DNA of 64,000 nucleotides from Phyllosticta citribraziliensis (GCF_038025025.1 NW_027117344.1:124001-188000), one strand, 5' to 3'. Positions 3,308 to 49,181 are shown, counted from the stretch's first letter. Numbers and translations are program-made. Notes: generated by a model not told the origin, from the letters alone.

Positions 3308-4345
3308 ATGTCTTCTACCAACCCCGCCAACTCGCTGCCCGAGGGCATGGCTGAGAAGCTCGCTGGCTCGGATGTGGAGCCGCCAAAGGACTGGTCGCAG
3401 TACGGCTTCCCCCAATTCTTGAAGGACAACCTTGCGAGCCTCGGCGCCACCCGACCCACCATGGCCCAGGCGGAATTGTTGGCGTGAGTTTCGCATTCAA
3501 TTGATCTTCGGAGTCGAGGCTAATATGATGAGCAGTATGCTTGGCCAGGCGGATTTCGACTCGTTTGTCACTACACAGCTTGAGGGGGAGGGAGGAAGCA
3601 CGCTGGGAATTTGTCTCTCCGCAATCCTCACGGCGTATCGCCGAATCGACGGAAGGAGGCGTTGTGTGGACCAGACGGGAAAGCTGATCCAGCCCGCGGG
3701 CCCTGAGTCCAAGGCTCGAGACAGGAGTCGCCCCATCCTCCCGGCCTCCATCATTCTGTGCCCAACAACGGACGCCGCGGAGAACATGCACAGGATGCTT
3801 CAGAGCTTGACGCACCCGGGCTGCCTGTACCTCGGCACCATAATCGACGGCAAGAAGAGAGAGGATACCGTCCTGCAGTTCGAATACGATTGCGACATCA
3901 TTGTTGCGACCCCTGCCGAGCTAATCAGCATTGTGGAGGACAAAGACTTGATCATCAAGTCGCCGCGGAGCTTCATCTTGGACGAGGTTCACTGGCTGCT
4001 CGGATCTTACTTTGAGTGGCCGCTTGAGAAGCTATACCATCTTCGTGAGTACCAACCGAAACCCTTTTCGTGCCTCACTAACATGTGACAGGAGTTATTA
4101 GCTCCACCACCAGCTTGGGCTTCGTCTGCAAGTTCTACACCGAAGCGATCCACAAGGACGTGTTGGCCTTCCGCGACCGCTCAGAGCTGCCGCTCATCAC
4201 GACGACCTTTGCCCACGATCCTGTTCCGAATCTCGAGCGCCAGCTGACCGGCGAGTTTGAGTACATGGAGGAGGTCCCGAGCTACCACAATTGCGGAAAG
4301 AATTGGTACGCAGACTACAGCTCCGCTAATTCGGGCTGGTGGTAA
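3308..4345 (+). CDS. Degenerate DEAD-box helicase-like protein H1 (N-terminal RecA domain only)
   Basis: Introns 3484-3535 and 4045-4091 splice in frame. Q-motif-like WSQYGFPQFLKDNLASLGATRPTMAQ, motif I eroded (GEGGST), Ia CPTTDAA, Ib ATPAEL, II LDEVH. Ends ...EEVPSY...YSSANSGWW* with no second RecA domain. Confidence 0.8.
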
Positions 4346-5438
4346 GATGTCTCCGGCTTCCGAATTGTCAGAGTAGGCCACGGTTGGAGTAGTGCAAGGA
4401 CGGCTCTCACGCCTAAGTTTTGGAACTGGTCGGAGCGGCGGTGGAATGCTCCTGACGCGCGCCGACTCCTCCGTTGGCCATGGTGTTCGCAGTAATGCTC
4501 AGAGCTCGGGCTTGGAACGAGTTGGAACAGTGGGAGGACAAGGTGGAATTGGTCGGAACGGTGGACAGATGCCCAGCGGAATTGAAGATGGAATCGGTCG
4601 GATAGCAGTACAACGGCTTTGAGCTCCTCCGGGCCGGAAATCCGTTGGAATCGGTGGATTGGAAATAGAACATGCTTCCCACTTACGTACTTTGTCCGAC
4701 TGCGATGTCTTTCCCGCCGAATGCCAGTCGCCATCAACAATACTGACCTGCTCGCAGCGGTTGAAGAATGCGTGGCGAGCAGTCAGCAATCATGACCTGT
4801 GCAGACATTGCCTTCTCTTTGAAGACATCTGGTAAGACCGGCCGCTGATGGCAGCTCTCTATCACTCTTGACTAGAATGAATGACGAGCAGTACCTTGCA
4901 AGAGTCGTCAGAAGCAGGTGAGTGCAACGAGACGCACGAATGCTCCCGAGCCGCCAGGGCGGTAACTCAATACGACAAGGCTGAGAAGACATGGATGAAT
5001 CGCAACGATCCATGTCTTGCGTGAGTCCTGAGATGCAATGACCAGGGATCATTCGTATTATTTGCCCGAGTGAGCAAGTTTGCGAGGGTTGGAGAATGCA
5101 TGCGCGACAGGCGGGCGGGACGGCTCGGATCGAGGATCGTCGGTGAGTAAGCGAGCCGGCATGACGCATGGCGGTCGTCAACGCCTCGCCTCACACGCTG
5201 GCAGCGGGCTCTGTACGTGAAAGATCATAAGGGAAAGAGATGCACTTTGACTCGAAAAATGACGCATATCTTTCATAAAAGTGGACGACTGAACGCGAAA
5301 AAGTACACTGACTGTCAAAGAAAATTGAAGGGGGGAGAAGAAGAGGGGCAAAAAGACAAGAAAAGACAACCATGATATCGCAAATGCAAACCGTTCCCAC
5401 ACCGTGACCACGTATTCCAACGCCTGGCAAGACCGCAA

Positions 5439-6118: not shown

Positions 6119-8055
6119 CTTGAATGAGCGTATAAGTATAGAATGCTGCTTGGTAGGAGCAAGTATCAAGTAGATGGACGCAGGCCTGATCCGAACTTGG
6201 CAATTCTTGTTGGAGTAAAGATGAACTGTAGAAGCATGAATGGTGGAGCGAAGGGGTTTCGCTTATTCGGGTCTCACGTGTACGGGTACGAGGTGGGTTG
6301 GAGGGTTGGTTTTAAAGAAGCGGCGGTTGCGAGCTGCTCGCAGGCACAACAGATAAGGCGGGCAGCTCAGGCTGGTAGCTGGCGCATGCATGGGCGGTGT
6401 TGCGTACGCGGCAAGGTGCCGAACAAACGGTCCCCGACAAACGGTCCTCAGAGCCACGAATCTCGGAGGCCAGCATCCCCAGTCTACCATGGTCCAGCCG
6501 AAGGCCAAGCTTTCAAGACGGGGGAGCTTGGTAACATCACGGTCCAAGTAACCAAGCCATCTTACGCATGTCAGTCAAATTTAGAAGTGATGGTCCATCA
6601 ATTGCGGCCTGAGAGGTCACTTTGCTCGAAGCTTTACCGGTCAAGGTCTCGACAGCTGGAAACGAGGAGTCTGTAAGAAGATGGATCCAGAGCGCTCAAT
6701 TGGGACTGGGAAAACGTAAGCTGGTGACGTGACGAGTTGACTGAAGAGGTGTCTGGTCCGGGAACGCGTTGTTTGGGTGCCGTGCGGTGCAGTTGGCCGT
6801 CGGAGCGGGAATTCCTTTTCCCGGAAGACCGGGCTTGGCGTGCAGGGCTGAGGTGTCCAGGCACCCGGACCCAGACCCAGGCCTTCCACGGCATCCATTC
6901 CACACCTCACCAGCCACGACGCCTTCGGTCCATCACCTCCATTTGTACGCTTTTTCCATCCAGAATCCCGCAAGCGACCCGCGTTGATTCCCATCGAAAG
7001 AATTCATCGTCGCACGGCATCTCCTGCGCCGACGACCTCCGCTGCTGCAGGAACCCACAGAGGCCGAGTCATGTGCTGACGCGTCCAACTCCCTGGCCCT
7101 ATGCGTTTGCCGCTGTTCGACGAGGGAGATCCGCGGATCGTGGTCAATCAAATCCGATACGCTCCCGTCTGGTCTCATCTGGCCAGTGAAGAGACTCGAC
7201 AAGTCGCCTATCGACTCCAACAAGATCTGGAAAGCCCGGGCTGCAACGACAAGTGCAAACCGTGGGCTCCAACCTGCCACGAGCTTCGTACAGACGTGTT
7301 GCCGAATCGTCCCGCAGTGCTCCACCAGGCCGCAATGCACCTCTCGATAGTGTCCTCTGTGCCTCATCCACGCCAGTTCAATTCTCGGGCATGCCGAAGG
7401 TACTCCATTTAGACTGCTGCCGTTCGGTTGTGGGTGGTGATCGCCCCTTCTCCGGCTTCTCTGTTCACGCCTGAACCAATCATGAGAGATGGAAACTCAT
7501 CAACTCGCTGTTGCTGTCAGTACGGCCAAAGCTGTGAATCAACACCGTTTCCGAGATTCGTCATTGACCTCTGGATGCTGACCAGAGACGTTGGCCAAAA
7601 CCGTTGAACATGATTTCGAAATCCCATGTACCTGCGACAAATTTTACACACGCGTCACTGCATCGCGTTTCCGACTGCTAAATCTGGACATCGTGCAGGT
7701 TTCAGGCCAATACATTTTTCCATATCCGTCCCCTTGGCGCCTAACCAGGGGTAGGTCTCCGCAAGGCGCTGGAGCCCCCGTGCAAAAGTCCTCGTTCTTG
7801 AGCCGCGCGTGCTTGCATCATGGGCTGTGCAGGAGGAGTTCGGGAACGCCTGATGACACCCAGTCCACTGTGCATAGTACTGCCACATCATGAAAGGCAG
7901 TCCATGCTTGTGTCGGTAGGTTGCCATGATAAATGTCTTTTGCCCGACGATGTTGTCTTTCAAGCTCGTGTCATTTACCTTTAACTTCTTCGCTCGCTAC
8001 GACAGTCATTCTTTTGGGGTACCTGACTGAAAATTTCTCTTCTTTCCTCTGAAAT

Positions 8056-9970
8056 ATGCGCGTTGGTCTTCTCGGAGCCAGTGTGCTCTGTGGTCTTGCT
8101 TCGGCGTTGCCTCAGGCCGAATCCACCTCTGCCTCCAACACTACCGCGACATCCACCACATCCAGCACCGCCTCTACTTGCTCAGGGAATGACGCCTCTT
8201 CGAGGACGTCTTGGTGCGACTACGACATTTCCACCGACTACACCACCACAGTCCCTGACACAGGCGTTGTTCGGGAATATTGGTTTGATCTGCAGGATGG
8301 GACAGCGTCACCTGACGGTATCGAGCGCTATGTGCAAACCATAAACGGAAGCGTACCTGGCCCAACAATCTATGGAGACTGGGGAGACACTGTCAGGGTA
8401 CACTTTACCAACAGCCTGAGCCAGAGCACCAATGGCACGAGTATACATTTCCACGGCATGCGCCAAAATTATACCAACCAGAATGATGGTGTTGTCTCCA
8501 TTACGCAGTGCCCCCTTGCAGTCGGGAGCAGCATGACCTATGAGTTTCGTCTGACGCAGTACGGCTCGAGCTGGTATGTTAGTCTCCAATTCCACAATGC
8601 GTGTCTAATCTTTCCAGGTACCACTCGCACTATGGACTTCAGGCTTGGGAGGGTCTTTTCGGTGGTATTCTGATCAACGGTCCCGCGACTGCAAACTACG
8701 ACGAAGATCTTGGCCACGTCTTCCTCAACGACTGGGACCACCAGACTGTCGATGAGTTGTGGGACACGGCCGAAGGCAGCGGCCCGCCGACTCTCGACAC
8801 TGGTCTTCTCAATGGCACAAACATTTATAACAATTCGGGAACCATTACTGGCGAGCGCCTCACCTTCAATTGGACCTCGGGCACCTCGTACCGCCTGCGC
8901 TTCGTCAATGCGGCCGTCGATTCGCACTACAAGGTCATGGTAGACAACCATACCATGACTGTGATTGCTGCCGACCTGGTTCCAATTGAGCCCTACGAGA
9001 CGACCGTGCTCAACATGGTATGATTGAATATCCGTCAAATTTCAAAGCTAACGTTTTCTAGGGAATGGGACAGCGATACGACGTCATCATCACGGCCAAC
9101 CAAGCATCCGTGGCCTCTGACTTTTGGATGCGAGCAATCGCGCAGTCGGCGTGCTCAGAAAACGACAACCCGACAATCAGGGGCATCGTGCACTACGACG
9201 ACTCAACAGACACGCCCTCGACATATGCCTACTCGTACACGGACGAGTGCGTCGACGAGAGTATCAGCGACCTGGTCCCCTACGTTGCCAAAACGATGGA
9301 CATTGGCACCAACCTGACCGAGGACGTCACAGTCGGTATCAACTCTGACAGCCTCTTCCGCTGGTACATGAACTCGACGTCAATGAGCGTCGAATGGGCC
9401 GACCCGACGCTCCAGCAAGTCTACAACGACGACCTCAGCTTCACCAACACCAGCGGCGTCGTGCAGCTCGACACGGCCAACCAGTGGTACTTCATCGTCA
9501 TCGAGACGTCCAACACCGTCCCGCACCCGTATGTTCCAGGTCATTGGTTAAGCTTGGGAGCCAACACTGACTCTTTGCAGGATCCATTTGCACGGGCATG
9601 ATTTCAGCATCGTCGCGCAGGGCACCGGGTCGTGGGACGGCTCCATTTCCAGCACGACGAACCCCCCGCGCCGCGACACGGCCATGCTGCTGGCGTCGGG
9701 CCATCTCGTGCTCGGCTTCGAGACGGACAACCCCGGCGCGTGGCTGATGCACTGCCATATAGGATGGGTGAGTCCAGAAAATAATCATAGAGTGAAAAAA
9801 GCAGGAGCTGACAAGCACAGCACACGTCCGAAGGCTTCGCCATCCAAATCCTCGAGCGCTACACCGAGCTGCAGGACCTGATCGACTCCGATTCGCTCAA
9901 CTCGACGTGCAGCGCGTGGACGACGTATGCGGCCGAGGCGTCGGTCACGTCGGACGACTCGGGCATCTAA
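8056..9970 (+). CDS. Secreted laccase / multicopper oxidase (AA1), 5 exons
   Basis: Signal peptide. Cu-binding motifs HFHG, WYHSH, HP|IHLHGH and HCHIGW|H are rebuilt across four introns. Ends with the ascomycete laccase DSGI* terminus at 9970. Confidence 0.95.
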
Positions 9971-10761
9971 GGAGCATTCAGCCGTCTGGACTGTACTAAT
10001 GTCTCGTCTTTCTCTCTTTTGTTCCCTGCATGTACGGCCGGAGTGGATGCACGGTTTGGTCTCTCGGACTCGCATTTTTCCTTCTTCTCGTTCGTTTCCG
10101 TCTCGTTTGTCCAGAGCACGGCGTTTGTGGGCGTCGCTTTTTCGGTTCAGGCACGAGAATACAAATACGTCTATTGCGCTGTCGTGGTGTTGCAAATACG
10201 CGCTATTCGCGGTGGTGGGCTGGGAATGCCGGCTAGTATTGCTGTGTCAGTCATCAAGAGCATCCATTCGCAAGCACACCAAGATTCCGGATGCTGTCAG
10301 GGAGCAGTCATTCGCTGACCCGGCAACACGGAGGGAGCATTCACCCTCATCAAGTCATTTCTCGAGTGTTTGTGGAAATCAGAAGATGTGATTTTGCTTT
10401 TCTATGGACGCAACACTATCCTTTGTGATTTTTCCTTTTGGCTTTTCTCCATCGCGATACTCTGAAGGTCGAGCACGTCTTTCCGGGACCTGGAGACGTA
10501 GTCCGGTTGTGCGTCGTAGTTCGGCGGAGGGGCGCAGAGTGACGACGTGGGTTCTGGAAGGGAAACCCCTCGAGCAAAGCCGAAACCTTTGAGACCGAAT
10601 GTCGTCAAAAATGAAGAACGCAGGCGGATTTTTACAGCAGCAGTATGTGAGGGCGAGCACAGAAAAAAGACCCGGGAGCATACGAGAGCCGAACTTGCGT
10701 TCATGAGGTCGGAGAAGCATGGGATGCAGCGGCGGACCCGGCTGATGCGTGTTGTGACGAC

Positions 10762-12475
10762 TCAAGCTCCACCGTTGCTGACAGCAGGAGTCGGGACTGG
10801 GTGGACCGGGGCGATGCACGCGCCTTGCCTGAAGCGATCAAGCAGCGCGAATCTGGTCAGCTCCTGCTGGCCCGAACGAACCAGATGGTGGGCCAGCTTT
10901 ACGAACAAATGCTCGTCGCGCTGCGAGTAGAAGGCCAAGCACCAGCCAGCGAACTCCGAGAGCGCAATGCGGTTGTTGCGCTGGAAGAAACGAGCCACGG
11001 GCGAGCAAGACTGCGACTCGCTGGCCATTGGGGGAAGACCGGCGTGAATAACGCACTCGACTGCCGCGATCGTGATGTTTTTGACAGCAGAGTCGGTCGT
11101 GATGATTACCTCTGCGCTCTCGCATTCGCGGCAGGTCTCCTCGCGTCCTTTGTGATTGTTGTCTCTGAGCACGACGAGCCGTCGGGTGCCACGCAGGAAA
11201 GTGCTCAGAGCGTCGATCTGCGACATGTTGGCAAAGATTATGACTTTGCCCGACATCTTTTCCATTGTCCGAGCGATCTTGCTGCTCGTCTCAACGTCGA
11301 CTTCGTCGATGGGGTCGAAGGCCATATTCGTGTGCCGCATCGGAGTTGTAGCAAGGGTCGATGCGCGTGTCGAGACCAGCAGCGTGTCCTCCTCCTCCAA
11401 GAAATCGATCACGTCGTCCTCCAAGTCGTCCGAGTACCGACAAGACACGAACGAGAAGAGAGCGTTTTCCGCGAAAACGCCTGATTTCGTCAGCAAACGG
11501 TCTGATCGTACCAAACATGGAAACTTGCGCTTGTGAAAAAGTCGCTGGAACTGCGAAAGGAAGACATCGTTGTAGAGGAGAGCTCGAGTCCCATTCATGA
11601 TGACGAACTCAGCGTCTAGCAGTGGATAGCCTCTGACAATCATGCCCCAGAGTCGTCCCGGGGTGGCAACCAAGACCTCAGCGCCGGCGTCGAGCTGCTC
11701 CCCCTGCTCCTTCAGGCTCATGAAGCCTTCGGCCTTTGCCGCACGAATCGGTCCATTGAGCGACAACGCCTTCAAAGCGCTAAATGTATACAAGACGCTC
11801 TGTCGACTCGGGCAGAGAACGACCACGGTCGGCACCGCACCTCGAGCCTGCGTTCTGCCACTGCGGACGTATCTCCTGTGCGCGATTCAGATGGCCGAAA
11901 GGCAGATCCCGATGGTGCGGTCAAGTGAGGGCTCCGCTGGAACCATGACGTGGGATTTTCCAGTGCCCATGATCCTTGTTCTCTCAGTCCCATGCTCCGA
12001 CACAAGGGGCTCGACGAAACTCACCTCAGGAACTCTCTCTGCACGTCTGAAGGTTTCCAAATCCCAAGGCGGTTGAGATTGTCGAGCAGGAACTGGGGAG
12101 GTCTGTAGTACGCCCAATCCTGCGGCGCGGAGGTATGTTGGGGGACCACCACAGCTGGAATCGTCGCTATCTCGGTGACGTTCTGGGAGACTGGTGAGCG
12201 CGAGTAACGTGGTCAATTGGAGAGCTAACTTGGTCGTTGCCCGGTTGCTGATCGTTCACCTCGTTGCCGGCGGACGAGGGAGGTTGAGAACGCAAAGTGC
12301 TGTGTCCAGTCGCCTGGAAAGGAGATATAGAAGGCTCCTACGAGGCCGTCAGCGCAGGCAGAGTGTCATTGCTTCTTTCAGCACTTACGTTTGCCCCACC
12401 AGCGCCCACAGCATCTTCCTCTGTGGAAAGCGAGGATGGTCCAGTGCCGGGCATTGCACATTCGGAGGAGGCCAT
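10762..12475 (-). pseudogene. Degenerate DEAD-box helicase-like paralog H2 with in-frame nonsense codon
   Basis: Q-motif exon DWAYYRPPQFLLDNLNRLGIWKPSDVQREFLR, then GICLSAI*IAHRR (TGA at 11887-11889, same frame as ORF 10762-11835), LCPSR, VATPGRL, motif II MNGTR, KVIIFAN, TTDSAVK. The start at 12475 is tentative. Confidence 0.8.
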
Positions 12476-12589
12476 TCGGAAGTACCGTGCTGGAACAGAG
12501 GCGAAAACCGCAACAGCGTTTGATAGATGGTGAGCCAAGGGCGGAGGATAAAGGGCGGAGGAGTAGGCCGGGCAGAGGATGTTGGGCGG

Positions 12590-12720
12590 CAGGTCGAGCG
12601 CTACAAGCGAGTTTCTGGAGGCGGTGCGGCTGTGTGTGAGCGGCCGGTGCAAACCCTACAGGTCCAGGCCTGGTGGGAAGTAGTAGAGCCGTTAACACTC
12701 CAGGTGTTATTTTGAACCGC
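12590..12720 (-). promoter_or_regulatory. Conserved upstream element of the helicase family (H2 copy)
   Basis: Sense strand reads ccgcaccgcctccagaaactcgcttgtagcgctcgacctg, plus a TAACAC-N5-GTGTTA inverted motif. Homologous to the copies upstream of H3, H4 and H5. Confidence 0.75.
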
Positions 12721-13420: not shown

Positions 13421-15033
13421 TCAAGCTCGCGATGCTTTGTGCAGCGGCGGTTTCGAGGGGACTTTGGGCGCAATGACTGACACATTCAACGTGTCCTCGG
13501 TTCCCAAGAAACCGACCACTCTGTCCTGAAGCATCGCAGTGTGGTATCTTGCCACGAACACGAAGGAAGTGGCATCGTCAAATATGCCTGAATCCGTCAG
13601 CAAAATGTCCAAAAGTTTCAGCAATGTAAACATACCGCGCTGGCGGAGCGATTCAACATCCTCGCCGTAGCGATCGGCCAGGAGGGTCGAGGCGGGATCC
13701 ATGATCACGAGCTCAGTCCTCACAATGGGACAGGATTTCCTGGAGACGAAATCGACCAGTCGGTCCGGCGTGGCCACCAAGATATCGCAGCCTTCGCGGA
13801 GCGTTTTGAACTGAGCTTCAAGGCTGGACGTTCCTGCTGCCATTGCTGTGCGAATTGGGCCAATATTCGCCAAGGACTTGAGGGCGGCGAAGGTATGTTT
13901 CGCCTGTCCCAGTCCTGGGCAGAGGATGATTGCGGCTGGCGTCCTACTCAGCTTTCCAGACCAAATCCATTCACCCTTGTTTAACCGCTGGTAGGCTTTA
14001 CGGATGGCCAAGAGACAAGCCCCAAGCCTCTTGCCGGATGAGGGCTCGGAGGTTGCCAAAATGTTGGTCTTGCCATTCTTGTTCTCCCTGCTTCCTCTTT
14101 AGCTAAAATTCTTCATGTTTGATGTTGATGCTGATACTCACCGGAGTAATGCCAACTGAACATCGGTGGGGGTTTTGATCTTCATGTCCTCAAGATTCTG
14201 GCACACAAACCCGGAAAACCCGAAAGCATCCCAGCCTTTCGACGGCTTCGGACTGGGTGTTGGAAGCGGTGCACGTACGGCGGTCGGCAGTTTGGGTTCA
14301 TTGCTAATTTTTGGCATTCTAGAACTGTCTCGGTGTCAGCCTACGTTCAGAGTTACGGCCACATGTCTTACATCTTTGACGGCAGGAAAAGCTTCGCAAA
14401 ATCGAATTCTTCACGGACGGTATGCTTGATGGGTGGGCGAGCGTGCTTTGCTCCCAAAAGAAGAGGTTCATCCTTCATCACCGTATGGTGAAGGTCCTGC
14501 TCCATAGAATTGACTTCCTTTGAAACAGGTCAGCAAACCCACATACACTCTGAAAACAGACTCTGAACTCACTGCTGGCTTGTCCAAGGAAGGGGACCGC
14601 GAAATCCCAAGCCCTTCGCCACTGAACTCGTAGCATCTGAGGGCGTGATACTCCGAGTTGCAGCGCAGCCCATGGCGCACACACGCCATACAAATGACGA
14701 AAAGGCGGCCCTTCGACGCACAGGCACCGCAGCCCCAGAAGACTTGCTTTCCAGCGTGGTGCTGGAATGTCCGGACGCATCTCTCGCAGATCAGCTCCAA
14801 GGAGCTTCTCCCACTGACAGAGTTTTCTTCGGTTCGGAGGGCTTCTGACTGAACATGGGCGGCGCCCGGAGCCTTCGACTCTTTGAGAGTCATGGTTGCT
14901 TTTTTCTATAGGATCTGTGAGCACGGGTAGTGAATGGTGTTGAGAGACTTACCTCATGTTCAATGGAAAGAAGGCCATTCGCCTGCGATGGACGCTGGGC
15001 CTGGGGAACGGGCTGCAGATCCTGGGATGGCAT
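13421..15033 (-). CDS. ZZ-type zinc finger + degenerate DEAD-box N-terminal RecA domain (H3), C-terminally truncated
   Basis: The ZZ exon (CERC..WGCGAC..ICMAC..C..H), the linker exon and the Q-motif exon (WDAFGFSGFVCQNLEDMKIKTPTDVQ) splice in frame, followed by ORF 13421-14059 (SSGKR, LCPGL, ATPDRL, MDPAS). Stop follows RecA1. The ATG at 15033 (ACAATG) is tentative. Confidence 0.78.
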
Positions 15034-15199: not shown

Positions 15200-15430
15200 G
15201 AATGGCAGTTGGTGGGTGGGTGGCGGAGTGGAGGAGTATGTTGCCAGGTCGAGCACCGTAAGCGAGTTTCTGGCGGCGATGTGAGCGCAGGCGCGGGTCC
15301 AATTGGGAAAGCGTAGGTAGAGCCAATTAACACTCCAGGTGGTGTTAATCTGCTCAAAGTAAATACCGCCACATTGACCCGCACCGCCTTCATCCCCAGC
15401 CACACTGAACCGCCTCTTGAATGATACCAG
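15200..15430 (-). promoter_or_regulatory. Conserved upstream region of the helicase family (H3 copy)
   Basis: The reverse complement aligns over ~230 bp with 23498-23735 (tatcattcaagag...ctacgctttcccaattggac...ctcgcttacggtgctcg.cctggca). Contains a perfect ATTAACAC-N8-GTGTTAAT inverted repeat. Confidence 0.8.
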
Positions 15431-15982: not shown

Positions 15983-17657
15983 CTAGGCCGAGACATAGCG
16001 GCGCCAGGTCTGACTTGGGGCAATAGTGGCACCCGCGTTGAAAAGGTTGATGACGGAAATGCGGTTCATCTGCTGCTGGCCCGATTGCAACAGATGGTAG
16101 GCCAAGTCGGGGAACAGGTGTTCATCCTGCTTCCTATAGAAAGCGATAGTTGCACCAGGGGGTGTCCGACTTGTCGTTGTTGGTTTCGCTTTTGCGTTCG
16201 CCGTCCTTGGGGCTATGCTCTGGGTTGTCGGTTTCGGGACGCTGGGGCGTGCGGCGCGAGCGTTCCGCGCCAGGTAACGAATGATAGGGCCATCACGCTT
16301 CGACGCTGTGACCTGCGGGAGAAAACCATGGATGACAAGTTCAACGTCCGACACCCTGATGCCGTTGGCGGAACGGTCGGTGGCGAGGATGACTTTGGCA
16401 TCTTTGTTCTCGCAGCGGCGCAGAGCCGCCTCGCGCTCCGCGCTGGTGATGTAGTCGCCCTGCAACACGACAAGTCCCTCGGTACCCTGGAGCATGGAGC
16501 GCAGCTGCTGGATTTGGTGGCGATTGTTGGCGAAGATCATGGCTTTGCCGGTGCGGCGTCCAATGGTATCAATGGCCTCCCTGATCTTCTGGGTATCGAC
16601 GGCTTCGTCGGACGCATTCATGAAGGTCATGCCGGCACGTCGCATTGTACCAGCCTCAGCAGACGCGAGTGTCGACACCACCAGAGACTCATCATCCTGC
16701 AAGAAACCTTCCACGTCATTGCCAAACTTTTTCGAGTAGAAGTTGCTGAGAAAGGCAAAGATGGTGTTCTCATCAATAATGTCTGAATTTCGTTAGCAAG
16801 TGATTCAAATAACGTCAAAGAGTCCGTCAAACCTACCGTTCCTCCAAAGGTCTTCCATGCTTTCACGAAAGAACTCACCAAGAAGAGCAGTGGCATGGTC
16901 CATGATGAGATACTCCGTGCCCGAGATGGGATAGCGACCCTTTATGACAATGTCAATGAGTCTTCCTGGCGTGGCAACGACAACATCGCAGCCCATGCGG
17001 AGCTGCTTCAGCTGGTATTTCCAGCCAACATCGCCAGTGACCTTTACCGCTCTGACCGGTCCCCCGCGAGTCAACGCCTTTAGGACTTTAAACGTCTCGG
17101 TGGCACGCTCGCGCGTAGTGCAGATAACAATGACAGTGGGCAGTGACTTGAAACGTTTGGCCCTCCTGCCTTGTTGCATGTAGCGCTTGTGTGCGAAGAG
17201 CACGGCCGACAAGCACGCCCCGACAGTCTTGCCAGACTTGTTGGGGGATGTCACCAGCGCGTCCGACCTTTTCGTCTCCATGATTCTTGTAGAGGTGTTA
17301 GTCCACAGCCGCTAACAGTAGTTTTGTTGAAATCACTCACCTCAGCAACTCCGATTGGGCGACTTTGGGCTCCTTGAGACCCATGGAGGCAAGGTTCGCA
17401 AGCATGTTGTGAGGAATGCCGAAGGTAGCCCAGCTGCTCAGAGGCTCGGGGGTAACCTGGGAGTGTGTCGCCGAGCCCGGGACAGAGGAGGCATCGGGCG
17501 TGTTGCTGGAAGTCTGAGAATAGCATTAGCCAATACAACATGTTTTGTCGGTTTCAGAGCTTACCTGAGCCCATCCGGGCCACAGATCATGGTCCGACTT
17601 GACCGCTGGGGACGGAGCCCGACCGCCAGGGATGGAACCTTCCTCATTGTGGAGCAT
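15983..17657 (-). CDS. Degenerate two-RecA-domain DEAD-box helicase-like protein H4
   Basis: Q-motif WATFGIPHNMLANLASMGLKEPKVAQ, motif I NKSGKT, CTTRERA, ATPGRLID, motif II MDHAT, KAMIFAN, ATDRSANG, motif VI-like YLARNARAARP. The two family introns are present. Confidence 0.85.
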
Positions 17658-17835: not shown

Positions 17836-17885
17836 GGTGCCAGGACGAGCACTGCAGGCGAGATTTTGAAGGCGGTGCGGTGCGG
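17836..17885 (-). promoter_or_regulatory. Conserved upstream element of the helicase family (H4 copy)
   Basis: Sense strand reads ccgcaccgccttcaaaatctcgcctgcagtgctcgtcctggcacc, matching the H2, H3 and H5 cores. Confidence 0.72.
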
Positions 17886-23497: not shown

Positions 23498-23735
23498 TTG
23501 ATATCATTCAAGAGACCGCTTAGTGGTTCGACGTGCGGGCGGTGCGGGAGCAGTCAGGGCCGTGTTCACTTGGGGCCGCAGAGGTTCAAAATAACACCTC
23601 CAGTGTCAATTATGGCTCTACGCTTTCCCAATTGGACATGCGCTTGCGTCTACGCCCGCGCCGCCTCCAAAATCTCGCTTACGGTGCTCGTCCTGGCACC
23701 CTACTCCATCCACAACCCACCCACCAACTGCCATC
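23498..23735 (+). promoter_or_regulatory. Conserved upstream region of the helicase family (H5 copy)
   Basis: Contains ccgcgccgcctccaaaatctcgcttacggtgctcgtcctggcacc and aataacacctccagtgtcaatt. Aligns with the H3 and H2 upstream regions. Confidence 0.8.
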
Positions 23736-23895: not shown

Positions 23896-25695
23896 ATGTC
23901 TTTCTCCGGAACCCCGTCGTCTGAGCGCCGCTATGTCTTTCCTGCTTCCATCAAGGAGGAGGATGGCACGGTCCCTTGGTTCGGATGGGAAGATGTAAGT
24001 ATATCAGATCAAAACACGCTGCCTGAGCTAACACATCTTCCAGGACTCCAACGACGTTTCGGTAAAAAGGGAAGATTTGGGCTCTGACGCTGAATCTTCT
24101 GACGCGGAGAAGGAGGATCTTCCTCTCTGGCCTGGATGGGAGGAGGTAAGTTCTGAACGGAAACACAATCACGTTGCCCGCGCTCACACATCTCTCAGAA
24201 CACCGCCAACAGAGCAGTGAGAGACGATGCATCCAGCACGTCTGCCCTTTGGTCCGAGTTGATGCGCGCGGGGGAGCCTACTCCTGCTCCCGGTCCTACT
24301 CCGAGGGCGCCCTCTCCACCACCAGTACGTCCCACCGCTTATTGCGGGTGGGAAGATCTTGGACTTCCCGACTTTCTCCTCACCAATCTCAATTGGTGCC
24401 TCTGGGACGAGCCCTACGTCGTCCAGGCACAGCTACTGAGGTGAGTACCTTGAACGTTAAAGGATTCTCGCCACGAAGTCCCATGCGTTGGTGACCGGAG
24501 ACCCGGAGTCGGGCAAGACGGCCGGCTTGTGCTTGGCTGCGATCACCTTCGCCCACCAGCAATCCGGCCTGGAGCCAAAGAAGACTTCCAGAACGTCTTC
24601 GCCTCCAACAGTGATCATTCTCTGTCCGACAGGGAAGCGCGCTGTAGCCACCCATAAGGCCTTGGAGGATTTGGCATCCCGGGGACCTGTCAAGGTGGGA
24701 GTGGCAGTTGGTGGTGAGGATCTGAGCCCCCAGCTTCGGCAGCTCCAGCAGGGCTGTGATGTCTTGGTCGCGACGCCGGGACGTCTGGTTGACATCGCGT
24801 CTAAAGGGCGCAACAACCCCGTCGCAAAGTCCAAATTGTTCATTATGGATCACGCCGATGCCCTTCTGGGCGATTTCTTCCGCGAAACAACGAAGGAACT
24901 TTGGACAAAGGGTAAGCTCGTGAAGCTGTCTAATCTTGAGTAACTTGCTAACCGAATCCAGGTATCGTTGACCCAAACACTGTATTCTCATTCGTCGCCA
25001 ACGCCTATTCTCGGCAGCTGGAGGATAAAGCGGCTGAATTTCTGGGCCATGACAAGACGTTCTCGGTGTCCACCCTTGCTTCCTTGCCCAAGGCCAAGAG
25101 CTCATCGAAGCGAGCGGGCATGACCTTCCGGCAGGTCTCAAGTGTTGTTGCGAACATTGACGTCGTCAAAGGGTCTATCGAAAGCATTAGACCTACGTAT
25201 CGCAACAAGGTCATCATCTTCGCAAACTCCGATTTGCAGGTTGATGTGCTTCGCTGGGAGCTCCGGGGAATCAAAGGGCTCGTCTTGCTGTGGGGCACTG
25301 AATCTCAGCAAGGGAAAAAGGAGGCCCTTGACCGGTGCCATAGTCAAGAAGCGCGCGTCATCCTCACGACAGACGCTTCCGCCGAGGGGTTGAAAATCTC
25401 TGGCATCGGACATGTCGTTCATGCCTGGCTTCCCCGTCGTGTGAAGGAGTCGCCGCTCGAGTCTCCCTTCAACAAATTTCTCTTGCGTAGCGCACGCGCC
25501 GCTCGCCCCGGAGTCCCAGGCTCGGTCCTGGCCTTGTACAGGAAAGATGACGGCCACCTGTTCAGAGATCTGGCGTTCCACCTCGTCCGGTCTGGTCAGC
25601 AAGAGCTGAACAGCAAGGACATTTTGAATCTGTTCAAGTCCACCGCCATGATCACACCCAGTCAGATCTGGCGCCGCCACACCGCAGAGTTGTGA
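23896..25695 (+). CDS. Degenerate two-RecA-domain DEAD-box helicase-like protein H5 (may be disabled by a 22-nt intron)
   Basis: Q-motif WEDLGLPDFLLTNLNWCLWDEPYVVQ, PESGKT, LCPTGKRA, VGG, QLRQLQQGCDVLVATPGRLVD, MDHAD, KVIIFAN, TTDASAEGL, FLLRSARAARPG. Confidence 0.82.
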
Positions 25696-26630: not shown

Positions 26631-28240
26631 ATGGATTCTCCGCCGGAACTGCTGCCGCTCGGCCACCAGTCTGCTCCGCAGGCAAAGGACGAAGGCGTTG
26701 AGCTGTCTCCTGAACGCGCCACCGTAAGTACCGCAAGGAAACCCCAATTAATACCCGCTCACAAACCTGCAAGTCCACCCAGAAAAAGCCCGTCGAAGCC
26801 GGAGTGTCGAGCAAGTCCCAAGCTCACCCGGCGACCACGGCCGACGCCACGCCCGACGACAGCACCACTTCGGAGACGCACTCTAACGTCTACTCCAAGC
26901 CGCCGCAGTTTTGGAGGAGATGCAACCTGCCCGAATTCCTGCTCAAGAACCTCGAGCGCGTGGGTATCAGCGGGCCCGCCGCCGTCCAGGCGGAGCTGCT
27001 GAAGTGAGTACCCCCATGACTTCAACCATACCGAGACTTGAAAGCTGACGGATTGGAACAGGACTCTCGGCACGAAGAGGTTCAACATCCTGGTCGCCTC
27101 GGAGTCTCCCGCGGACAAGAGGTTCGCCGTGTGTCTGTCGGCGCTCTGCTTCGCCCAGGACGAGCGCAAGAAGCGCATGCTGAAGAGGTCTTGGAGCCCT
27201 GCGAAAGGACCCGCCGTGGTTTTGCTCTGCCCGACCAGAGAGCACGCCTTCCAGACCTTCAATGTGCTGAAGGCTCTGGCTCACAGGAGCCCGCTCAACA
27301 CGGCGTGGGCGTACGGCGGCACTCCCATGGAGCCCCAGATCCGCCAGCTTCGAAAGCATTGCGACGTGCTGGTCGCCACGCCAGGCCGCCTCATCGAGAT
27401 AGTCGGCCGCTACACGATCGCCGAGGTGGGACTCGTCGTCGTCAACGAGTCTCAGACGCTTCTTTCCCACACTTTCCATGGCCAGATGGAAGAATTGTGG
27501 AGGCAAGGTACGTCTTCCACACTCTTCTGATTCTGTCAAGCCGCTTGCTAACAGCCATACTAGACATTGTCGACGACAATACTCTCTGGGCATTCACCTG
27601 CAACCGCACCACGGCGGCACTGCAAGCACGCATCACCTCATACCTGCGCGACAACAACCTGGTAATCAAGCACCCACACCCCGCCCACAACAACCCGCTC
27701 GCCATCTCCGTCTCCGAGTCCATCGTCCCTCACGAGCCGCGCAAAATCCGGGCCTTCGAGATCGTGCAGCACATCATCACGACACTGGCGAGGCCGCACG
27801 CGCGCGCCCTCATCCTCGCCAACAGCGTCGCCGAAGTGGAGATGCTATACCCGAAGCTGCGCTGCGTGGCCGGCCTCGTCGTGCTGCTGGGCACGTACTC
27901 GGCGCGCGAGCGCGACATGTTCCTGCGCGCCAGCGGGCGCGGCGCGACGCGCGCGATCCTGACGACGGACGCGTTTGCCGAGGGGCTCGAGTTCGACGGC
28001 GTGCGCTACGTCGTGCAGACGTACCTGCCGCGGAGCGTGGCGGCGTTGGAGAGGAGCGAGGAGGAGGACGAGGTGGCGCGTGTGCAGAGTGGCGGACGGG
28101 CGCCGGCCCGCTTTGGCCGGTATGCGTGGACGTTGCTGTACCGCCAGGAAGACGCGAGCGGGCAGCTGCCGCGGTGGCCCATCGTGTCGTGCAGTAAGGT
28201 GCTGGCTATGGCGCCGAAGAGGCAGTGGGGAGGCAGGTGA
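26631..28240 (+). CDS. Degenerate two-RecA-domain DEAD-box helicase-like protein H6
   Basis: Q-motif WRRCNLPEFLLKNLERVGISGPAAVQ, motif I eroded (SPADKR), LCPTREHA, YGG, ATPGRL, motif II VNESQ, ALILAN, TTDAFAEGL. The two family introns are present. Confidence 0.82.
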
Positions 28241-40209: not shown

Positions 40210-40212
40210 ACG

Positions 40213-40802
40213 GTACGTGATCTTGTGTGGATTAACTGTTGATGACTTTTGCTTACACTCCTTTCGCAGCCTTTCGAAACCGAGCTTCCCACAGTCACAG
40301 AACACCCATTGCGGTCCCCTTGGACGCGCAGAATCAGGCAAGTGAGTGACCTTGTGCTAGATCCTCTGTTGATGACTTTTGCTAACATTCTTTTCGCAGC
40401 TCTGCGATCTTGAGCTTTCTTTGCTGTCGGCCTCTTTCTCTACGCGTCTTCCTTAGGATGCACGGCCTGGCCTGCCGAGTACGCCTTCTTGCACTTAATC
40501 CCACCTCTTGACTTTTGCTTACATTCTTCCTTTCACAGTGTTTTTGCGCCTGCACCTTTTCGGTTTTCGTTTCAGTCTCGTTTTGGCGGCCAGACGTCCC
40601 TGGTATGTGGCCTTGCACTGAGTCCTCCCTCTTCAACTTTCGCTTACGTTCTGCCTTGCATAGCTTCTTGACGCACAAGAATCTGTCTTGAGTCAGTTCT
40701 GGGACGTCCGTCCTATGGCGGAGGCCTTCCTCTGTCTGCCTCGTATGTGGCCTCGCACTGAATCCTCTCTTCACGATTCCGCTGACAATTTCTCTTTCGT
40801 AG
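40213..40802 (+). repeat. Array of five homologous intron-shaped repeats (57-61 nt) separated by unique 64-79 nt segments
   Basis: Units at 40213-40269, 40342-40399, 40479-40538, 40603-40663 and 40743-40802. Each starts with a GT donor-like hexamer (GTACGT, GTGAGT, GTACGC, GTATGT x2), has a GCT(T/A/G)AC branch-like box and ends YAG. Confidence 0.85.
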
Positions 40803-41149
40803 CCTTTTTGCCCTTCCGTCTGCCTGTTTTTTGAGTCATCCATAGCGGCCATCCTCGTGGTCTTAGCTTCATGACAATACATCTTCTCGCAGACAAAAAC
40901 TCTAAACATCAGTTGTCAATTATGAATCTTCCTCCATCGTGATTTCAATCATCCGCATGCTTTGCGTAGTAGAATTGCGAAAGCTACAATCAATGGACAT
41001 CTGCAAAGACAACCTGTTCAGCAAGGTCGACGGCCTTTGATGAGGGCTTTCAGTGTGCCAATTTTGTTGAGTTGTGAATGCCTTTCGCACACTAGCCGTA
41101 TTAATGTCGTTTTCACTCCGGTTGCTTCTCTATGCAGGCGCAGGACGGC

Positions 41150-41275
41150 ACCAAACAGGCTAGAGCGGGCGCTCAGTGGGAGCCGAGCCCACAAACAGGC
41201 GCTGCGTGGGCGGTGGGCGCGTGACTATAAAAGGACTGCCTCCCCCCCGAGTTGACGAAGACGAGACACCGCACC
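41150..41275 (+). promoter_or_regulatory. TATA-containing promoter of orphan copy B
   Basis: Near-identical to 39550-39700, with TATAAAAGG at about 41226. Confidence 0.85.
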
Positions 41276-41334
41276 GTTCGCTCCATAACCACGCCCTTCC
41301 CGCCCCGTTCGCCCATCGCGCCCCATCAGTCATT

Positions 41335-41891
41335 ATGTCCAGACTTGTCACAAATTCAGAATGGAATCAAGCCTTGCGCGAGGGCGCTTGCCGGCGCTCT
41401 TCGCCTCGTCGTGGCCCCCCGGCCTCGACGGAGAGCTGTAAGTCCCTGACCCCGCTTTCACTTGGTACCCAGATCACTGATCGTCAAAGTTGTCGATGTT
41501 GATCAGGCCCTGAGCAGGGCCAGAGACCGTGGCCGTCCCACCTGGAGCCAACGCTCACAGCTCCAGGAGGCGGCCCGGGCTTTGGACCTCATTGCCAGAG
41601 GCGGTCCCAAACGTTTCTTTTTCGGTGAGTCTAAGTCACGATCGTGTCCTGAACTTGTCGCAAAACTGACCATGGCAGCTGGTGTGATCGATGAGCTCCT
41701 CTTGCACGCACACAAGCCGGAGGTTTCAGCCGCCTTCCGTGAACGCTGCCGTCGCCTTTTCGCCATGTGGGCTGAGCTGGGAGCGTTGGGAAGACTGTCG
41801 CCCCACGGCGAGGAAGCAGTAAGTGACCTCAGCTTGGATTACCTGTTCATGACTCTTGCTTACACTCCTTTCGCAGCCTTTTCGCGCTTGA
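41335..41891 (+). CDS. Small orphan family protein, copy B
   Basis: MSRLVTNSEW...|FVDVDQALSRARDRGRPTWSQRSQLQEAARALDLIARGGPKRFFF|AGVIDELLLHAHKPEVSAAFRERCRRLFAMWAELGALGRLSPHGEEA|PFRA*. Clear homology to copy A. Confidence 0.72.
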
Positions 41892-42621
41892 GAGTTCTCC
41901 ATGAGCACAGTTTCTGCCGGGTATGCCGCAAGTTCAGTCGGGTATGTGACCTTTCACTGAATCCTCTCTCGACGACTTTTGCTAACAATCCCTCTTTCGT
42001 AGTGTCTTTCCCTTTCGGTCTCCTTTCGCGAAGAGTCAATGACAACAACCACCTCCCAGTGCTTGTTTCATAATACATCTTCTCACAATGAGAAATTCCA
42101 ATACAAATTACCAATTATGAACTTCTCTTCTCCGTGATTTCAAACAACTGTATTTTTGAAGTGTTGAACGTAAGATCATAAATTGAATGGGTCGCCAGTA
42201 CGACTGCCGTTCAGCAAGTTGAATGGCCTTCGATTGAGGCCCAGCAAATTGCAGTATATATTTCACACTGAATAGTTTGTGGATGGATTTGGCGCAGACT
42301 CGGCGCAAAGCGTCCTCAAAACATCGCCGCGCTTCGAAGGTTTCTTTCTATCGCGACCTTCCACATCATCGGAGGGGCGCTCCGCGACGAAACAGCCCTC
42401 GAGGATGAGCTCATCCGTGACGTGAGGCTCGTGTTGCAGACCGGGAAGATTCAACTGTGCATTTCCCTGTCAATCCAGCCTTTCTTCGACATGCATCATA
42501 TTCTGCGACAAGACGCGCACCGCTCTTTCGACCGGACCCGGCTCGAGGCGCAAGGTCCGACGTCACCAAAACACCACACACAACCACAGCACCATCTCGA
42601 CCAACCTCCGACTTCGTCACC

Positions 42622-46789: not shown

Positions 46790-49181
46790 ATGGCGCCTGA
46801 GTATGATGCACCAGCTGGCCGCTCGCCGCCTTCCCACCAGCCAGCAGGTGAAAGGGAAAAGAGTCAGGTAAGCGTTCAGAATCAAAAAAACGGCACGGAC
46901 TGACGACCTCTTCAGATCATGGAGGAAACGGTCCCTCACGTGAAGGGCTCGAGCAAATTCTCTACTCGGTCTCCATGCAACACCCCGTTCCGTCCAGGAT
47001 CTCTGACGACGACGCACTCGTGCGACCCCGACGGCAATGCAAGTCCCAGGATGATTAGGATTGGCATCCGCTTACATGCTTCACAGAATGATGCGGATCC
47101 ACCGCACTCGGAGAAAGACCCGAACAGCTCTGCCACCGAGGAGGAAAGCACCGCGGTCCAGATCATTGACGAGATCCCTCGCCCGGACATTACACCCATC
47201 CTCACCTGCAATCGATGCTCGAAGGCGGTAGACGGCAGCGCGAAGAACGACATGGCTTGGGAGTGCACCTCATGTTCATCCAACGGCGGGCACTACATCA
47301 TTTGCTTGGAGTGCTTTCTTCATGAGCCAGTGTGTCTGTCGGCGTGTCACTCTTTGGCGTGTTGGTCGGTTTTCGAGGGCGGAGACCTTGCCGAGAGAGA
47401 CACATACTTGGATAAGCCCAAGGTATGTCGTCGACCGATCATCGTTGAAACCCTTTGCAAATGCTGACGCGCGGTACCAAAGGACGTTGAGCTTTCTGTC
47501 CTGCCTGGCGAAATGAATCCATTCCGTTGGTCCACGACGCGCATTGATTTTCAGAAGGCGGTTAGAGTCATGCTCTACAAGGCCAAGAATATCAAGCCGG
47601 GCCTTGCCTCCGAAAAGTAAGACTTTCACATTGTGACCTCTCTACACGTACTGATTCGGAAGTAGCACCTACCGAGAGCCCATCTCTCGGCACGATGGCC
47701 GTGATGAACAGCCGAACGCGCAGCCCCCAGTCCAGCTGCCCCCCGTCAGCCTTGAGCCATTGGATGATTGGTCCCCGATGGACATTCCCTCATTTGTGCA
47801 TGACAACCTCAGGTACTTGGGTGTGGGAAAGCCCACATTAGTGCAAGGCGAAATCTTCAAGTGAGTGCCGTCTGTCTTACACATTGGCACTTTAAACTGA
47901 CAAAACAATCAAGAGTCGTCGCCCGGAAACAATACAACTCCCTCATTGCATCAGAATTCTCGTCGGGCAAGACCTTGGGAATCTGCGTGGCATCCATCAA
48001 ATTTGCCAACAAGCTGGTCATGGATATGAAGTCCTCGATGCCTGAGGGCTGGGTTACTGAGCGCAAGGAGCCCAAAGTCGTTATACTTTGTCCTGTCCGC
48101 GAGCATGCCATGCAAACATTTGAGGCCTTGGACGCGTTGACGTACCGCGGCCCCATCAGTGTGGCAAGCGTCATCGGTGGGTACAGCAGGCGACACCAGG
48201 TTTCGCAATTGCGCCAGGGTTGTGATATCATCGTGGCCACACCCGGACGACTTCTAGACATCGCGAGCAATCCCAACGGGTTGTGGTATCGGCATCCGAT
48301 CGTCGATGTCCCCTTTTTCGTTATGGACGAGGTCCAAGCGTTTCTTGACGATTCCTTTGCTCAACAGATGCAAGATCTCTGGAAAAGCAGTGAGTCGCCA
48401 AGCATACTGTTCTATTTGAGCAAACAACTGACGCGTATTAGAAATCCTAAGCGATAGCACCATGCTCAGCTTCTTTTCCAGCACCTTTAGCGAAGAGTTG
48501 GTCGACAAAGTCGCAGCAATTCGCAGGTTCCGTTTGCATGTGTCGACAATCCCTCGAGACCATGTTCCAAGTCAGATGCTGCGTATGGCCAACGTCTTCC
48601 TGCCCGTCGTCGACGAGCCGCACTTTGGCACTATCCGCCTCATTATCAGAGGCAGGCCGGGTGACACCAGACAGGGAAAGGTGATGATCTTCGCCAATAC
48701 CCGCGCGCAGGTGGATCTACTTGGTAAAAGGCTCCAAGATGTCCATGGACTTGTTGTGCGCTCGGGTCAGCAAAGCCAGGAGAAGCGTGAGTGGGCCCTG
48801 CACGAAGCAGAGAATCGAACTGCCCGAGTAATCATCACGACGGACTCGTACGCAGTTGGCGTAAACATTCCCGACGTCTACTACGTCATCCACGCGTACC
48901 TCCCCTCTCGAGCGACTGGATCTGAGCTCGACTCGCCCATGATTCGGTATATTGAGCGCAATTGCCACGCTGGCCAATTCGGCAACTCGGCATACAGTCT
49001 AGCATTTTACACCAACAACGATTCCAAGTTGTTTCCGGAATTGGCCCGCCATCTTGTGCGGGTTCGTCAGAGCAGGGATGAAACCGCGGTGTATGAGAAG
49101 TTCAAGAGTGGCGAGATCGTTAAGCCAGATCAAAAGGAGGACGACACAACAACCGTCACCGACGCGAACAAGGCAACTTGA
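46790..49181 (+). CDS. ZZ-type zinc finger + full two-domain degenerate DEAD-box helicase-like protein H7
   Basis: Six exons. CNRC..WECTSC..ICLEC..C...CH, Q-motif WSPMDIPSFVHDNLRYLGVGKPTLVQ, SSGKT, CPVREHA, IGG, ATPGRLLD, MDEVQ, FSSTF, KVMIFANTR, QEKRE, TTDSYAVGVNIPDV, YIERNCHAGQFG. Confidence 0.85.

Follow-up and report, generated by a model that had tools for sequence, protein, structure and literature searches.

The window analysed here is a 64,000-nucleotide (nt) stretch of the genome of Phyllosticta citribraziliensis (GCF_038025025.1, NW_027117344.1:124001-188000; positions are counted from its first letter, and + and - denote the strands). Between positions 3308 and 49181 it contains seven loci, termed here H1 to H7, at which a comparison of open reading frames (ORFs) from all six frames revealed pieces of a single family of paralogous DEAD-box helicase-like genes. 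In the all-against-all BLASTP comparison of these ORFs, the exon of H5 that encodes the first RecA-like domain (domain 1) matched the other six loci with E-values from 1.9e-48 to 6.6e-16 and 31-49% identity. The family had been noticed before in an analysis confined to the DNA itself (hereafter the sequence-only reading), which described it as a local expansion of Ded1/DDX3-like pseudo-helicases; all seven starts proposed there coincide with the ATG codons of our gene models, and its end at 49181 is the last position of the H7 stop codon. The DEAD-box identity of the genes is borne out by Pfam. The DEAD domain (PF00270) was found in all seven copies, in six of them at 44.8-78.6 bits (cut-off 26) and in the piece of H2 at 23.3 bits, i.e. 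under the cut-off, while the full-length H7 protein scores 84.3 bits. The Helicase_C domain (PF00271) was found in five copies (H2, H4, H5, H6 and H7) at 27.0-46.6 bits (cut-off 23.5); the Pfam scan did not find it in H1 or H3, and tblastn detected no remnant of domain 2 near either of them. DEAD, Helicase_C and ResIII were the only families returned by the Pfam scans of the copies, and an NCBIfam scan gave sub-threshold matches to bacterial DEAD-box models only.

Reconstruction of the individual genes reveals very different degrees of integrity. Intact two-domain genes are found at H4, H6 and H7, which are the only copies with clean two-domain ORFs. H4 (15983..17657, -) comprises the exons 17565-17657, 17341-17513, 16837-17285 and 15983-16782, and its 504 codons correspond letter for letter to the annotated 504-amino-acid protein P0269 (or P0121). 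It carries an in-frame insert of 78 nt at 16157-16236, in the region of motif VI, whose 26 codons are rich in Pro, Thr, Ala and Lys. H6 (26631..28240, +) is an open two-domain model of 481 codons, with exons 26631-26723, 26774-27003, 27062-27507 and 27564-28240. H7 (46790..49181, +) has six exons and 709 codons, is identical to the annotated protein P0122 (709 amino acids), and possesses a Cys/His-rich, ZZ-like N-terminal region. H1 and H3 are forms with domain 1 only. H1 (3308..4345, +; DEAD 44.8 bits, without Helicase_C) is an open model of 312 codons with the Q motif, a RecA-like domain 1 and the region of motif III; its exons (3308-3483, 3536-4044 and 4092-4345) are separated by two introns (52 and 47 nt) that each have a GTGAGT donor. 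H3 (13421..15033, -; also without Helicase_C) consists of a Cys/His-rich (ZZ-like) N-terminal exon (14471-14905), an exon with the Q motif (14142-14335), the domain 1 exon (13636-14087) and a tail (13421-13587) with a stop about 60 codons after the second shared intron; its N-terminal exon chain comes from a stepwise search, and the junctions there are plausible candidates only. The two remaining copies have both domains and are damaged or doubtful: H2 (10762..12475, -) has an in-frame TGA at 11887-11889 and a GC donor in its second shared intron, and H5 (23896..25695, +), although letter for letter identical to the annotated protein P0001 (541 amino acids; NCBI protein, P. citribraziliensis), to which its domain 2 exon is 100% identical, depends on a first shared intron of only 22 nt.

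The two intron positions that the sequence-only reading had reported as common to the family, one after the Q motif (intron A) and one after motif II (intron B), are indeed present in all seven copies. Intron A has a GTGAGT donor in every copy and is 50-58 nt long in six of them; intron B is 47-56 nt long, with GCAAGT as the donor in H2. Altogether 13 of the 14 family introns have conserved splice signals. Intron B of H2 and H3 is free of stops and in frame, and therefore their ORFs read through it. These shared positions, together with the monophyly of the family in the tree described below, uphold the earlier proposal that genomic duplication of a single ancestral gene gave rise to the copies. 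The exceptional intron is intron A of H5 (24441-24462, GTGAGT...AAG). Its 22 nt, less than half the length of any of the other 13 family introns, are generally too short for fungal splicing; if it is left unspliced the frame stops straight after the Q motif, and none of the in-frame alternatives pairs a good donor with a normal length. H5 is probably disabled by this collapsed intron. In the case of H2, the P. citrichinensis ortholog P0123 (79.6% identity over 407 amino acids) carries Arg where H2 has the TGA, the tip branch of H2 is three times as long as that of P0123 (0.146 vs 0.047), and the TGA lies inside a contig (11172-12100) from a same-species run of RNA type (see below) that shows no difference from the window. 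We read H2 as a recent pseudogene in P. citribraziliensis, which would have been killed by a change of the CGA-to-TGA type.

Such lesions bring up the possibility that all seven loci are decaying duplicates, a gene graveyard whose open frames and gene models would be functionless remnants or artefacts of annotation. The stop codon in H2, the 22-nt intron in H5 and the missing second domain of H1 and H3 are what this explanation would predict, as are the fragmentary orthologs P0270 (195 amino acids), P0124 (249 amino acids) and P0280 (114 amino acids) in other species, the low identity between paralogs (only 26-44%), and the lack of splicing in the listed RNA-run contigs that cover parts of H2, H4 and H6. 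It fits poorly with the frames of H4, H6 and H7, which are open over 504, 481 and 709 codons, with splice signals kept in 13 of 14 introns, with the conserved element upstream of four of the copies, and with the length of the H4 insert, which preserves the frame; that segment is skipped by the contig of a related organism and is also lacking in P0002 of P. citriasiana. The earlier statement that most frames have stayed open thus holds for H4, H6 and H7, while H2 and H5 are compromised and H1 and H3 have no domain 2.

More evidence on this point comes from sequence differences. We aligned contigs of related organisms to positions 10300-28300 and classified the 40 best supported of about 1,930 single-base differences. 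Helicase loci contain 34 of these 40 (3 intronic and 31 coding), and among the coding differences 23 are synonymous and 8 non-synonymous, where a synonymous share of 24-29% is expected (binomial p 8e-9 to 2e-7); the classified differences come from stretches that aligned at 80% or more, which favours conserved segments, and the synonymous excess consequently overstates constraint on the family as a whole. The ratio of synonymous to non-synonymous differences is 3:1 in H3, 11:3 in H4, 5:3 in H5 and 4:1 in H6. What the excess shows is constrained coding segments and not a family-wide omega, the ratio of non-synonymous to synonymous rates (dN/dS). Between paralogs, the proportion of non-synonymous differences (pN, 0.36-0.55) is lower than that of synonymous differences (pS, 0.61-0.76) in all 21 pairs, with dS saturated, so that the pairwise dN/dS check proposed in the sequence-only reading remains rough. 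There is no present signal of repeat-induced point mutation in any of the seven copies by the customary index thresholds: TpA/ApT is 0.38-0.64 and (CpA+TpG)/(ApC+GpT) 1.11-1.46, similar to the values of neighbouring genes. Orthologs from different species keep the same degenerate motifs, e.g. motifs I and II read PSLDRT and NGTR in H2 vs PSLDRS and NGTR in its P. citrichinensis counterpart, and PADKR and NESQ in H6 vs PADKR and NEAQ; this sharing implies that the erosion is old and that the genes persisted afterwards. The shared motif states, the 23 synonymous changes out of 31 and the excess of pS over pN in every pair make a graveyard quite unlikely as an account of the cluster. The claim of a selected, fast-evolving family survives in the sense that the family is not decaying neutrally as a whole; some of its members are decaying.

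Analysis of the conserved motifs, aligned with the canonical DDX3-like proteins P0004 and P0005 as references, reveals an uneven pattern of loss. From H1 to H7, motif I reads GEGGST, PSLDRT, SSGKR, KSGKT, ESGKT, PADKR and SSGKT, motif II reads DEVH, NGTR, DPAS, DHAT, DHAD, NESQ and DEVQ, and motif III reads CKF, SCR, ARY, SNF, ANA, CNR and SST. The motif II series is identical to that listed in the sequence-only reading, and GKT is, as stated there, limited to H4, H5 and H7, i.e. lost in four of seven copies. None of the seven window copies and none of nine relatives (0 of 16 family sequences) retains the first Gly of GSGKT. Retention is low at the Glu of motif II (3/7) and its fourth residue, Asp (1/7), at the Ala (0/7) and Thr (1/7) of motif III, and at the Arg of motif V (0/5). 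SAT is absent from all seven window copies and from all seven aligned relatives, and neither SAT nor HRIGRTGR is intact in any copy, again in agreement with the earlier claim, with the qualification that H4 (ARNARAAR) and H5 (LRSARAAR) keep the three arginines of motif VI in their RxxRxxR spacing; H7 (ERNCHAGQ) has lost two of them. In contrast to these ATPase motifs, which the sequence-only reading had called eroded, other positions persist: the Q-motif Gln is kept in 7/7 copies, in motif Ib the Thr in 7/7, the Pro in 7/7, the Gly in 5/7 and the Arg in 6/7, the first Gly of GG in 6/7, the motif IV Phe in 4/5, and in motif V the Thr in 5/5 and the Gly in 4/5. Motif Ib reads ATPGRL in all but H3 (ATPDRL) and H1 (ATPAEL), and all five two-domain copies have IFAN or ILAN as well as TTD or ATD, so the reported persistence of these motifs was correct. 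By the textbook assignment of DEAD-box motifs to ATP-facing and RNA-facing roles, the losses fall mainly on the former and the retained positions on the latter.

The partial retention in some copies must be weighed against the view that ATP turnover is lost. H7 and the P. capitalensis proteins, and conceivably H4 and H5 as well, might be working ATP-dependent helicases, i.e. a divergent catalytic offshoot of DDX3: H7 keeps SGKT and the Asp-Glu (D-E) of motif II in DEVQ, H4 and H5 keep SGKT and RxxRxxR, the P. capitalensis proteins P0003 and P0127 keep SGKT or AGKT, DEAQ or DEAH, and RNGRTGR, and the Q-motif Gln is universal among the window copies. We consider this unlikely, given that SAT is missing from every copy and every aligned relative, the motif V Arg from all five two-domain copies and the first Gly of GSGKT from all 16 family sequences, that His takes the place of the catalytic Glu in H4 and H5, and that H7 is devoid of two of the three motif VI arginines.

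In order to place the family among DEAD-box proteins, we calculated a tree of 27 sequences, from which three short fragments were left out and in which other subfamilies were represented by Prp28, a few assorted eukaryotic sequences and two bacterial ones. The 16 family members form one clade (support 100/100), whose stem measures 1.13 changes per site, and this clade joins five DDX3/Ded1-like sequences at 94/99, apart from Prp28 and the bacterial sequences. Its inner clades comprise H6; H7 and H1 with the P. capitalensis proteins; H4 and H5; and H2 and H3; H7 is the copy nearest to the P. capitalensis members, and the branches of H1 and of the Lasiodiplodia protein are long, their placement being unsure. 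Each inner clade holds orthologs from other species, and therefore the main duplications preceded the split of the citrus-associated species. The best relatives in the PDB are DDX3X for P0003 (91 bits) and H4 (76 bits), and a Vasa-like protein of Bombyx (96 bits), followed by DDX3X, for H7. The DDX3/Ded1-like origin suggested by the sequence-only reading therefore fits both the PDB ranking of all three queries and the tree, and is the best-supported origin within the limited sampling of subfamilies. The genes are not Ded1 itself: instead of a conserved, single-copy gene on a short branch we found a separate clade, a stem of 1.13 and seven local paralogs.

Members of the family were found in a narrow range of fungi. 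A profile of the five domain 2 exons, searched against 1.84 billion protein representatives, retrieved 11 proteins at E<=1.2e-29, followed after a gap by matches from 5e-17 onwards, which are generic DEAD-box proteins. A scan of 151 proteins for the family signature (IFAN, TTD, LFxxLAxHL) flagged 14, of which 13 are true members; the other, P0228, is a canonical helicase. The members with a species name come from Phyllosticta citribraziliensis, P. citrichinensis, P. citriasiana, P. citricarpa, P. paracitricarpa and P. capitalensis, as well as from Lasiodiplodia theobromae, whose P0130 is a distant member that bears an automatic 'DED1' label despite degenerate motifs (STNSGKS, IEQA); two further family fragments come from other assemblies. 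Metagenomes scanned with H4 as the single query yielded 23 pattern matches and no relatives, and a search with the domain 1 alignment among proteins of 656-2000 amino acids returned generic DEAD-box proteins only, which is uninformative on the annotation of H1, H3 and H6. Judged by consecutive accession numbers, the genes are clustered also in P. citriasiana (three adjacent genes), P. citricarpa and P. citrichinensis. By the same token the helicase genes of P. citriasiana are apparently directly adjacent, with no genes between them.

The closest relative of P. citribraziliensis is P. citrichinensis, according to PMC9073689. Protein identity to its orthologs is 80% for H2, 82% for domain 2 of H6 (P0278) and 87% for domain 1 of H4, and identity to members from P. 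citriasiana and P. paracitricarpa is 47-53%. The H4 ortholog of P. citrichinensis is the domain-1-only P0270, while the model P0272 fuses the orthologs of H4 and H2; P0124 of P. citricarpa is a fragment with mainly domain 2, and P0280 is a truncated ortholog. Forms with domain 1 only have arisen at least three times (H1, H3 and P0270). The variable truncation of orthologs in relatives indicates turnover by birth and death. As for novelty, full-text literature searches, confined to the articles themselves, found no paper on the family, and PMC9073689 is not among the Phyllosticta papers containing the word 'helicase'; the notion of an undescribed system holds to that extent, although public annotation already contains the proteins, named generically 'P-loop NTPase / RNA helicase'.

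At the DNA level, likeness between the paralogs is limited to the stretches that precede their coding parts. A core of 35 nt occurs in four copies, 115-246 nt before the ATG codons of H2, H3, H4 and H5, and in none of 100 shuffles. It is located at 12590..12624 (-) ahead of H2, 115-149 nt before the ATG at 12475 and inside an RNA-run contig (12102-12769), at 15245..15279 (-) ahead of H3, at 17841..17875 (-) ahead of H4, and at 23661..23695 (+) ahead of H5. The last of these lies within a 466-nt block (23301-23766) with 66% identity to 15167-15636 upstream of H3, and 23656-23804 is 74% identical to 17735-17880. Another upstream block, of 97 nt at 2794..2890 (+) before H1, is 78% identical to 12930-13026 (-) upstream of H2. 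The 35-nt element folds only into a hairpin of five pairs (-3.7 kcal/mol) with no convincing covariation, and Rfam and tRNA scans of the window gave no matches. We infer that it is a shared promoter or leader of the clade formed by (H2, H3) and (H4, H5), and its common presence suggests that H2-H5 may be co-regulated.

The N-terminal regions of the copies are also partly related. The Cys/His-rich modules of H7 and H3 are homologous (E 2e-13, with eight Cys or His residues aligned). Pfam gave no match for the H7 module even at E<=5, PF00569 included, and its structural neighbours in the Atlas include ZZ-containing clusters with TM (template modelling) scores of 0.41-0.46, under the threshold for a match; its identity as a ZZ-type zinc finger can be regarded as a lead. 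A different, Trp-rich motif is present in the N-terminal exons of H4 (17565-17657; LWPGW) and H5 (23896-24145; WFGWED followed by LWPGWEE), as well as in a relative from P. citriasiana.

Taken together, the data point to a lineage-specific family of non-hydrolysing, RNA-binding or clamping derivatives of DDX3 that evolves by birth and death, a reading to which we assign a probability of about 60%. A plausible history begins with an ancestor of the DDX3/Ded1/Vasa type, which would have been duplicated locally before the split of the citrus-associated Phyllosticta species and whose descendants range over Phyllosticta with a distant relative in Lasiodiplodia. H4, H6, H7 and perhaps the half-proteins H1 and H3 would be maintained, while H2 and probably H5 would be dying. 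The maintained members are predicted to have lost ATP turnover, given the absence of the Glu or Asp of motif II, the whole of motif III, the motif V Arg and portions of motifs I and VI. They retain the scaffold of two RecA-like domains together with the motifs that face RNA (Q, Ib TPGRL, GG, IV and, in motif V, Thr and Gly), and may therefore serve as RNA binders or scaffolds without catalysis. On this basis the two-domain copies can be sorted into three putative grades. H4 and H5, with GKT and RxxRxxR kept and the catalytic Glu lost, could adopt an ATP-bound 'clamp' state; H7 keeps GKT and D-E and lacks two motif VI arginines; and H2 and H6, which have lost the Gly or Thr of the P-loop, are probably nucleotide-free.

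Several points weigh against this reading, among them the bias of the classified differences towards conserved segments and the saturation of dS mentioned above. H7 and its P. capitalensis relatives, with GKT and D-E, could still hydrolyse ATP. The DDX3/Ded1 placement draws on few subfamilies and on margins of 7-13 bits over DDX23/Prp28. The transcript evidence is likewise ambiguous. Two runs from the same species, X1 and X2, yielded spliced contigs over the neighbouring transcription-factor and transporter genes, with introns 18939-18993, 19479-19524, 21138-21181 and 21559-21604, all between H4 and H5, removed; because of this splicing we take the runs to hold RNA, although no run is recorded as such. 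Their contigs cover parts of H2 (11172-12100 and 12102-12769), H4 (15773-16624, 15916-16221 and 17203-17513) and H6 (26347-28300), and among the pieces listed over these three genes all are unspliced through the introns A and B that they cover, and none of them attests a correctly spliced sense mRNA. Intron retention, antisense transcription or DNA carry-over are possible explanations. The H6 piece, with none of the three introns removed and an adapter marking the end of the molecule at 26347, is part of a 6,015-nt X1 contig that runs past 28300 toward a convergent ORF of 1135 codons, and it may be a long antisense or read-through transcript, or again DNA carry-over. The H3 region (13305-15708) has no cover in X1 or X2 and H5 is thinly covered; we draw no inference on expression from this.

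The same unspliced contigs in RNA-type runs and the common upstream element could also be accommodated by a module for conflict or defence, in which fast-evolving, ATPase-dead mimics of DDX3/Ded1 counter mycoviruses or selfish elements in the manner of decoys or sensors, or operate at particular stages, such as the sexual one, through regulated intron retention. RNA viruses use DDX3/Ded1. The turnover of copy number and integrity between species, the domain-1-only forms that arose at least three times, and the fast divergence of orthologs (H2, H6 and domain 1 of H4 are 80-87% identical to P. citrichinensis, the closest relative according to PMC9073689) are, as indirect evidence, compatible with such a role. 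The roles in RNA silencing, antiviral defence or sexual-stage granules put forward in the sequence-only reading are likewise conjectural. The listed differences are mainly synonymous, which speaks for purifying and not diversifying selection; the Pfam and NCBIfam scans found no defence-type domains in the copies, and nothing of viral or transposon origin came to notice within the cluster, for which no systematic search was made. This explanation is very doubtful. A related reading, in which co-regulated ATPase-dead DDX3/Ded1 mimics, including the recurrent domain-1-only forms, serve genetic conflict or a stage-specific RNA programme, for instance as decoys for, or sensors of, the mycoviral or selfish RNAs that normally recruit Ded1 or as clamps of ribonucleoprotein granules switched by regulated removal of introns A and B, strikes us as distinctly improbable; if true, it would make this the first described expanding pseudo-helicase family in fungi.

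Returning to the reading of the copies as non-hydrolysing DDX3 derivatives, its significance lies in the departure from what is usual for these enzymes. Fungal DEAD-box helicases are among the most conserved RNA enzymes and mostly single-copy. This family breaks the pattern: a DDX3-type core has been duplicated locally and has lost ATPase residues in varied combinations, yet is still constrained in several species. It would offer a naturally occurring set of variants, "clamp-like", "nucleotide-free" and "half-helicase", in which to study the capabilities of a DEAD-box scaffold in the absence of ATP turnover and the ways in which pseudo-enzymes originate, and the locus is a concrete, deletable target in a non-pathogenic citrus endophyte for testing the roles of pseudo-helicases. 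Even if the copies are inert, the locus clearly illustrates birth-and-death evolution, in a genome family with few tandem gene families.

The helicase loci are interspersed with unrelated genes. Exons of a multicopper oxidase (laccase-like) lie between H1 and H2 (8053-9598, +), and the segment between H4 and H5 (18149-23381) contains genes for a Zn2Cys6 transcription factor, a transporter of the major facilitator superfamily and a protein with the metallo-beta-lactamase fold. The 1135-codon ORF that converges on H6 (29069-32473, -) belongs to no Pfam family, its best match being Viral_NABP with E 0.01, below the cut-off; within it, around 30168-30621, are direct repeats of 71-80% identity at an offset of about 57 nt. 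An uninterrupted ORF of 2136 codons between H6 and H7 (32149-38556, +) has leucine-rich repeats near residues 1531-1668 as its sole Pfam matches. A second local duplication, unrelated to the helicases, comprises 39530-40951 and 41125-42146; its flanking DNA is 70-94% identical, and its two ORFs, 39589-40206 and 41450-42070, share 49% identity over 115 amino acids and have no Pfam match even at E<=5. Downstream of H7, at 49654-49844, there is a direct repeat in which 49720-49844 is 82% identical to 49654-49778 at an offset of 66 nt.

Several known proteins can be compared with the family. The nearest named fungal match to H5 outside the family is P0005 of Penicillium vulpinum ('Helicase C-terminal'; E 2.7e-18, 23% identity), which differs from it in possessing all canonical motifs (AQTGSGKT, DEAD, SAT and HRIGRTAR). 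Utp25 is a conserved single-copy nucleolar factor. PMC9539457 presents Utp25/Def as a 'pseudohelicase' of the small-subunit (SSU) processome, and what the protein has in common with the window copies is the concept of a DEAD-box-like protein that lacks catalytic motifs and acts non-enzymatically. We rejected a Utp25-type identity for the copies, for which Pfam scans returned no Utp25 family and whose DDX3-like origin is different. Another parallel is offered by eIF4AIII of the exon-junction complex and by DEAD-to-DQAD mutants, which bind ATP and RNA without turnover and so form stable RNA clamps. H4 and H5 resemble this clamp state in keeping GKT and RxxRxxR while His replaces the catalytic Glu; hydrolysis is blocked by partner proteins in eIF4AIII, whereas in H4 and H5 it would be abolished by the loss of residues, and they could be expected to clamp by analogy. 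The closest comparison is with DDX3X, Ded1 and Vasa (DDX4). The window copies share with them the two RecA-like domains (both in five of the seven copies), the Q, Ia, GG, Ib (TPGRL), IV and V (Thr) motifs in their usual order, and a region C-terminal to motif VI that can be aligned with DDX3-like proteins. In contrast to them, the copies never have DEAD, SAT or HRIGRTGR, have lost the motif V Arg and, in four of seven cases, GKT, sit on a long stem (1.13 changes per site), carry in H7 and H3 a Cys/His-rich N-terminal module, and form a multi-copy, clustered and genus-restricted family, whereas DDX3X, Ded1 and Vasa are single-copy and universal.

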